A stretch of 43,633 nucleotides of DNA from the IMG/VR virus record IMGVR_UViG_2563366881_000003. One strand, given 5' to 3'. The position numbers and the translations under genes are program-made. Shown here in pieces: positions 41,625-41,666 of the stretch (its first letter is position 1; the number at the start of each line of letters is the position of its first letter). The DNA is from a virus (taxonomy: Duplodnaviria; Heunggongvirae; Uroviricota; Caudoviricetes). Below the pieces are notes generated by a model, which was given only the letters and a program-made list of their open reading frames with translations, did no database searches and was not told the origin of the DNA.

Positions 41625-41666
41625 ACAAAAAATTAGCGCAAGAGGACAAAAATCACCTTGCGCTAA
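41625..41666 (-). terminator. sib/tI-like minus-strand hairpin terminator in the attP P arm (candidate)
   Basis: 10-bp inverted repeat TTAGCGCAAG...CTTGCGCTAA, followed on the minus strand by T6, about 150-180 bp from the att core. Confidence 0.4.

Follow-up and report, generated by a model that had tools for sequence, protein, structure and literature searches.

The hairpin at 41627–41667 (minus strand) near the right attachment site of this prophage is, on the evidence of homology, an already known element, the retroregulator tI/sib of lambda, which integration has separated from int. We consider it highly likely that the hairpin comprises the lambda tI terminator with the overlapping sib site, belongs to the P arm of an int-xis-att cassette of lambda type and retroregulates int. 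The stretch of DNA analysed, 43,633 nucleotides in full and hereafter called the window, had been predicted from its letters to carry a sib/tI-like terminator in the P arm. Homology, spacing, polarity and annotated counterparts all agree with that assignment. The sequence identity, position, polarity, predicted structures and partner elements of the hairpin were established in this analysis and are described below.

A lambdoid prophage at the lambda attachment site

The att core GCTTTTTTATACTAA was found exactly twice in the window, where 0.01 copies would be expected by chance. Both copies are exact matches on the plus strand, at 1331–1345 (attL) and at 41813–41827 (attR), the latter identical to the lambda core at 27724–27738. 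Two exact cores 40.5 kb apart imply a complete prophage flanked by host DNA. Judged from its sequence, the window contains a complete lambdoid prophage at the lambda attB site of E. coli.

From the attL core onward, the P′ arm and int are 97.7% identical to lambda (window 1331–2733 against lambda 27724–29126). The int gene (1419–2489, minus strand) adjoins attL and encodes 356 amino acids, 352 of which are identical in lambda Int. The xis gene (2467–2685, minus strand) encodes 72 amino acids, 70 of them identical in lambda Xis. On the host side, the left end of the window holds a minus-strand ORF of 427 amino acids, which by the gene order of K-12 is probably ybhC. To the right of attR are ybhB, a 'kinase inhibitor' gene (41918–42394, minus strand), and then bioA.

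The virion genes are P22-like (Lederbergvirus-type) and include a rightward tailspike gene at 39395–41383. The best phage match of the window is the Lederbergvirus vB_EcoP-720R6 (ON470605.1), a record described as a 'partial genome' that carries the ybhB kinase inhibitor gene, bioA and bioB to the right of attR. The host genes in this record imply a prophage-plus-flank sequence and not a packaged genome. Genes resembling cI, cro, cII and cIII were found, and the immunity region is HK022-like. An Rfam scan of the whole window at the gathering threshold returned two RNAs only, the sar RNA (P22 immI antisense RNA; 38324–38391, minus strand; 92 bits) and the lambda cIII thermoregulator (7415–7473, minus strand; 88 bits).

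Structure of the hairpin

The plus strand of 41620–41672 reads AGTTGACAAAAAATTAGCGCAAGAGGACAAAAATCACCTTGCGCTAATGCTCT. A repeat search gave two 11-nt arms, 41632–41642 (ATTAGCGCAAG) and 41657–41667 (CTTGCGCTAAT), which are 100% complementary and 14 nt apart. The inverted repeat of the original prediction is thus present, with a length that has to be corrected from 10 bp to 11 perfect pairs, or to 12 when a G·U pair is counted. When the minus-strand RNA (CAUUAGCGCAAGGUGAUUUUUGUCCUCUUGCGCUAAUUUUUUGUCA) was folded, these 12 pairs (11 Watson-Crick and one G·U) formed the stem, and above it were a 1×1 mismatch and a 3-bp inner helix capped by a UUUU loop. The run of six T expected after the repeat on the minus strand is there, as A6 on the plus strand at 41627–41632 or U6 on the minus strand (41632–41627). 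The U opposite 41632 doubles as the last pair of the stem, and five unpaired U residues follow the stem, then GUC.

The stem is stable and contains G+C, and with the U-run behind it the hairpin has the predicted structure of an intrinsic terminator. The RNA of the plus strand has no trailing U-run, so that the terminator would act in one direction only. The 53-nt minus-strand RNA folds with −19.9 kcal/mol, compared with −8.9 ± 2.3 kcal/mol for dinucleotide shuffles (z = −4.7), and one of 200 shuffles folded as well.

A simple terminator scan missed the hairpin only because it accepts no loop longer than 8 nt, which is a limit of the tool and no evidence against the hairpin. Rfam has no family for sib/tI. 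No Rfam family matched at the hairpin in the gathering-threshold scan of the whole window or in an E-value scan of 41300–42000, which returned chance-level miRNA and snoRNA matches only.

Match to lambda and to annotated counterparts

An ungapped alignment of window 41623–41831 with lambda 27534–27742 showed 87.6% identity. The only difference within the hairpin (lambda 27538–27578) is at 41644, where the window has G and lambda has A (C and U, respectively, in the RNA), a base that is unpaired in the fold. Comparison with the lambda sib/tI sequence had been suggested as a check, with lack of similarity as the adverse outcome; a single changed base in an ungapped alignment is the opposite of that outcome. 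The distance from the end of the U-run to the centre of the core is 193 nt in both genomes (41627 to 41820; lambda 27538 to 27731). Measured from the attR core, the near arm is 146 nt and the far arm 181 nt away, in agreement with the predicted 150–180 bp.

The P1 arm-type Int site of attP was transferred by way of the ungapped alignment to 41672–41691 (plus strand) from the 'int 1' feature of lambda J02459 (27583–27602). It lies directly beside the hairpin, at a distance of 5 nt, and GGTCACTAAT was invariant in two multi-phage alignments.

Several records carry an annotation at the corresponding position. It is named 'sib retroregulation site' in HK97 (21042–21091), 'Transcription terminator tI' in O276 (22367–22406, equivalent to window 41627–41666) and 'terminator' in 434. 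The lambda tI/sib itself (J02459, about 27538–27586) is like the element of the window in its sequence, its strand relative to int, its distance from the core and its adjacency to P1. The likeness extends to the predicted terminated and read-through structures and to the cII box of pI, and the neighbouring int and xis are 99% and 97% identical to those of lambda.

The closeness to P1 raises the question of a DNA-level site, in which the repeat would be a protein-binding site or a cruciform for attP recombination and not an RNA element. The 5-nt spacing and the co-conservation with P1 would be expected of such a site. However, the hairpin extends from −153 to −188 relative to the core centre, and the minimal attP, spanning −152 to +82, stops just short of it. 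It contains no arm-type consensus, and lambda J02459 gives no binding site there. A directional U-run with an upstream purine run able to pair with it makes sense only in RNA. We regard a DNA-level site as exceedingly improbable and continue with the RNA element, tI/sib.

Position relative to int in the prophage and in the excised phage

The hairpin adjoins attR, whereas int lies at attL about 40 kb away. The two are thus parted by integration in the prophage, as in lambda and as had been predicted. The strand that gives the U-run (minus) is the int strand. Once attL and attR recombine to attP, the 3′ end of tI would come about 274 nt past the int stop codon on the same strand, as in lambda. 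The sequence of the excised phage would therefore place the hairpin downstream of int with int polarity, in the position of lambda sib, as the original prediction held.

The same polarity would fit an insulator in the lysogen, which would stop bioA-ybhB transcripts that enter via attR and run antisense to the tailspike and late genes. The ybhB gene (41918–42394, minus strand) points toward attR and the hairpin. Just past the ybhB stop codon is a perfect 9-bp hairpin (CCAGATGGC/GCCATCTGG, loop of 5 nt; 41887–41909) that has no U-run on either strand, so that host bioA-ybhB transcripts may enter attR and reach tI in the lysogen. However, the element also lies beside P1 in BP-4795, in Stx1a phages, in SI8 and in PPompW with its diverged P arm, and most of these phages probably have attachment sites of a different kind. 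Insulation would also leave unexplained why a partner of the U-run in the lower stem, described below, is conserved. As the function of the hairpin we think it very unlikely; insulation is plausible as, at most, a side effect added to the lambda-type role.

Predicted extended duplex in read-through RNA

Folds of 161-nt and 76-nt RNAs predicted an extended sib duplex at 41624–41675 (minus strand), the presumed RNase III substrate. In the 161-nt folds, the terminator stem grows downward past a 1×1 C/U mismatch, and the U-run with GU(C) pairs with an upstream purine run. The lower stem of the window consists of GGCAGAG (41675–41669) paired with UUUUGUC (41630–41624), giving 7 pairs; in lambda the purine run is ACAGAG and gives 6 pairs. 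The difference is at the foot of the helix, where lambda has AA and the window GG, so that an A-U pair becomes G·U and a G-C pair is added. In total, the read-through duplex has 22 pairs and two 1×1 mismatches in the window and 21 pairs in lambda, with the same architecture.

The predicted minimum free energy of the window RNA is −21.6 kcal/mol when it ends at the U-run and −31.1 kcal/mol with 12 more nucleotides, the latter value being due in part to a 6-bp outer helix that is missing from the 161-nt fold. The corresponding values for lambda are −20.4 kcal/mol for the RNA ending at the U-run and −24.3 kcal/mol for the read-through form. The outer helix (UAGUGA/UCACUG) was considered as part of the element and rejected, as it appeared in the 76-nt fold and not in the 161-nt fold and can form with the window-type flank only. 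In its fold, an RNA stopped at the U-run retains only the weak A-U and G·U part of the lower stem. These folds fit the lambda model, in which the complete processing site would be present in read-through RNA only.

A duplex of about two helical turns is the size expected for a substrate of E. coli RNase III, and the predicted 22 pairs of the window amount to about two helical turns. The RNase III-type duplex features that the original prediction proposed to look for are found, in predicted form and with the lambda architecture, in the read-through RNA. A general model of double cleavage by RNase III is given in PMC6212723.

Conservation across phages

In a phage collection, 78 records matched 111 bp of sequence with the hairpin inside, and in most cases the similarity starts at window 41622–41624, just outside the U-run. 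IMG/VR was scanned with a pattern that left every stem position as N; this gave 42 sib-type matches and 2 unrelated ones, and pooling these with the phage records gave 29 distinct sequences. The stem is unvaried among them except in three, each with a single mismatch: a C·A in PPompW, an A replaced by C close to the base of the stem in one contig, and one at the C-G pair of the lower stem. Identical stems are found in HK97, HK022, 434, O276, mEp235 and other lambdoid copies.

In the PPompW type (PPompW_14040/Stx2_14040, about 1605–1650), GCAC replaces GCGC in the 3′ arm and produces the mid-stem C·A, and there are two changes in the loop. This hairpin may be a naturally weakened sib/tI.

Across the 29 sequences, 96% of the cells of the pairing table were paired and 17 of the 22 pairs never varied. 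The seventh pair of the lower stem of the window (G-C) is unpaired in 18 of the 29. The covariation analysis of these sequences found one double-change cell and exceeded neither control, giving no compensatory support; with an invariant stem, covariation is uninformative. The support for the helix is in thermodynamics, in conservation and position, and in homology to a genetically defined lambda element. The strong conservation could in part reflect recent spread of one cassette and not selection.

P1 and the hairpin together make up a block that is conserved across the 29 sequences, and the DNA around this block is less uniform. In BP-4795, the Stx1a phages and Salmonella phage SI8, likeness to the window is limited to little beyond P1 and the hairpin, and the PPompW phages have a diverged P arm with 81% identity. 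On the other side, at least eight unrelated 3′ flanks start 2–4 nt past the U-run (41624–41626; loci L001–L057, 29 distinct sequences). As read from these alignments, the 3′ end of the hairpin is a very sharp mosaic boundary. A boundary this sharp suggests UUUUUUGU(C) as the end of the functional unit, with the 3′ strand of the lower stem inside it.

Could such a hairpin be a product of chance and have no function? Within the 43.6-kb window, only two loci have a perfect inverted repeat with arms of 11 bp or more and a loop of 3–20 nt, the hairpin and a core/P′ repeat at attL. Dinucleotide-shuffled windows contain a mean of 0.19 such short-loop repeats, and about 11.5% of them contain at least one. 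However, 26 of the 29 sequences keep the stem unvaried while both flanks diverge, the fold stands out from its shuffles (z = −4.7), and the hairpin is the counterpart of a genetically defined element of lambda. Homology rules chance out here, and we give a functionless hairpin practically no credence beside tI/sib.

The other of the two loci is formed by the att core and the P′ side at 1330–1365 (TGCTTTTTTAT...ATAAAAAAGCA). The P′ side of lambda has the same sequence.

Putative transcript sources and antitermination

The cII recognition box of pI (TTGCGTGTAATTGC; 2698–2711, minus strand) does not differ from that of lambda, nor does the beginning of xis, and a cII-like gene lies at 11157–11453. 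We found no N gene in the window. In the position of nun is an ORF for an HNH endonuclease (9242–9775, minus strand; phrog_99, E = 7e-66). The pL-putL region is 98.9% identical to that of HK022/O276, and the misc_RNA feature putL of O276 places an HK022-type putL antiterminator RNA at 9837–9899 (minus strand). Because there is no N gene, antitermination would come from the HK022-type putL RNA, and by analogy we infer that putL-modified polymerase reads through tI. HK022 and O276, a hybrid of lambda and HK022, likewise have the hairpin together with putL-based antitermination.

These data bear on whether the hairpin might be the intrinsic terminator tI only, with RNase III retroregulation idle in a put-dependent, P22-like phage. 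The absence of an N gene from the window is in line with such a loss, as are the 3′ flank past GUCA, which is unlike lambda, and the pair counts, which give the lower stem no covariation support. However, every residue of the extended helix in the lambda fold is present, and the window adds one pair. The conserved block runs through UUUUUUGU(C) and so takes in the 3′ strand of the lower stem. An HK022-type putL is at hand to provide read-through, and an HK022-type contig, apparently HK022 itself (locus L033), has the same hairpin. We thus consider a terminator without retroregulation unlikely, and the combined terminator and processing site, tI with sib, the better description.

Proposed mechanism

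In lambda, RNase III cuts the read-through duplex, and 3′-to-5′ exonucleases then degrade the int message. By analogy with lambda genetics, we would expect the present phage to show termination, cleavage by RNase III and the same effect on Int. In an excised or infecting phage, attP would join the prophage ends, and minus-strand transcripts would reach the hairpin about 274 nt past the int stop codon. Transcripts from cII-activated pI would stop at the U-run and, with the stable hairpin kept at the 3′ end, yield Int. Those from pL that are antiterminated, being modified by the HK022-type putL RNA and not by N, would run past tI. In the read-through RNA, the U-run and GUC would pair with the upstream purine run to complete the 22-pair helix. 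Cleavage of this duplex by RNase III would remove the 3′ hairpin and expose the int message to degradation by 3′-to-5′ exonucleases, which is retroregulation. As the outcome of this sib-driven decay, there would be less Int than Xis soon after infection.

The prophage has the hairpin at attR and int at attL. Because of this separation, pL transcripts made on induction would lack sib and would express both Int and Xis for excision. The sole mechanistic departure from lambda would be read-through by way of the putL RNA in place of N.

For lambda, PMC5300877 describes sib downstream of int as retroregulating int and int mRNA as less abundant than xis mRNA early in infection. The RNase III-processed int transcript is the subject of Plunkett and Echols 1989 by its title, as cited in PMC5371410. 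By their cited titles, Schindler and Echols 1981 and Guarneros et al. 1982 are sources on lambda sib (PMC5300877, PMC7093339).

Comparison with other systems and use in annotation

The window differs from lambda in several features around the conserved element. The 3′ flank past GUCA is unrelated, and about 120 bp of extra DNA lie between sib and a short island that matches lambda 27469–27510. The b region is almost absent, with the tailspike gene ending 243 bp from the U-run. For antitermination, HK022 putL is predicted to stand in place of N/nutL. HK97, HK022, 434, O276 and mEp235 are siphoviruses, whereas the prophage in the window has P22-like virion genes.

Phage 21 has a stem-loop downstream of int that A. 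Campbell likened to lambda sib, as described in the literature (PMC3530522). It differs from the window in the arrangement of cII boxes, which in phage 21 are downstream of int with none upstream; the pI box of the window is upstream. The Sib sRNAs of E. coli (SibA–E; antitoxins of the Ibs type I systems; PMC2943612) have the name alone in common with the present element and are unrelated cis-antisense sRNAs.

The main value of recognising tI/sib is correct annotation; it does not point to a new mechanism. The element goes without annotation in most genome records, among them lambda J02459 and the E. coli genomes annotated by PGAP. Recognising it fixes the left edge of the int-xis-att cassette precisely and confirms an intact lambda-type control module for integration and excision in the prophage. 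For comparative work, the element is of use as one that stays unvaried in phages with differing flanks and, probably, differing attachment sites, and whose 3′ end lies within 2–4 nt of a mosaic junction to at least eight flanks. A further point is that a P22-like phage here combines the element with RNA-based (putL) antitermination.

The flank downstream of the hairpin

The island mentioned above, a 42-bp segment at 41457–41497, is 90% identical to lambda 27469–27510. It lies amid unrelated DNA about 150 nt downstream of sib and contains two overlapping repeats that resemble cII boxes (TTGCACTGGATTGC and TTGCAAGGCTTTGT; 41471–41494, plus strand). In the 434 record, the same boxes are annotated as CII sites. 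Lambda, O276, 434 and PhiR11_1 have the island; HK97, PPompW, BP-4795, phi80 and 2B8 lack it. The island was considered as a promoter, but by inspection there is no acceptable −10 hexamer 11–13 nt past either box. With no such hexamer, and with those five phages lacking the island, we rejected it as an obligatory partner of sib.

The island might be a cII-responsive element, from which a rightward transcript or a bound protein would modulate sib/tI as a second cII input to int retroregulation. We think this very unlikely. A comparable idea was pursued for phage 21 by A. Campbell.

Between the island and the hairpin, about 120 bp are common to the window, 434, JEP4 and SI8 and are not found in lambda. 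They include a minus-strand ORF at about 41520–41596 (MLSISISAEQMMQWWADWIDEKVE). We rejected this ORF as a gene, as it has a stop codon inside in Salmonella phage SI8 and corresponds to a pseudogene remnant in PGAP annotation: in E. coli Z0117EC0117, the equivalent of about 41520–41603 (minus strand) is a pseudogene fragment without the N-terminus.

On the plus strand at 41512–41531 is a perfect 8-bp hairpin (AAGGTGGA/TCCACCTT) with the loop TCAC, followed by TTTTCATC. The 46-nt segment that holds it (41500–41545) folds with −13.9 kcal/mol (z = −3.4). This hairpin may weakly terminate the rightward transcript of the tailspike and late genes.
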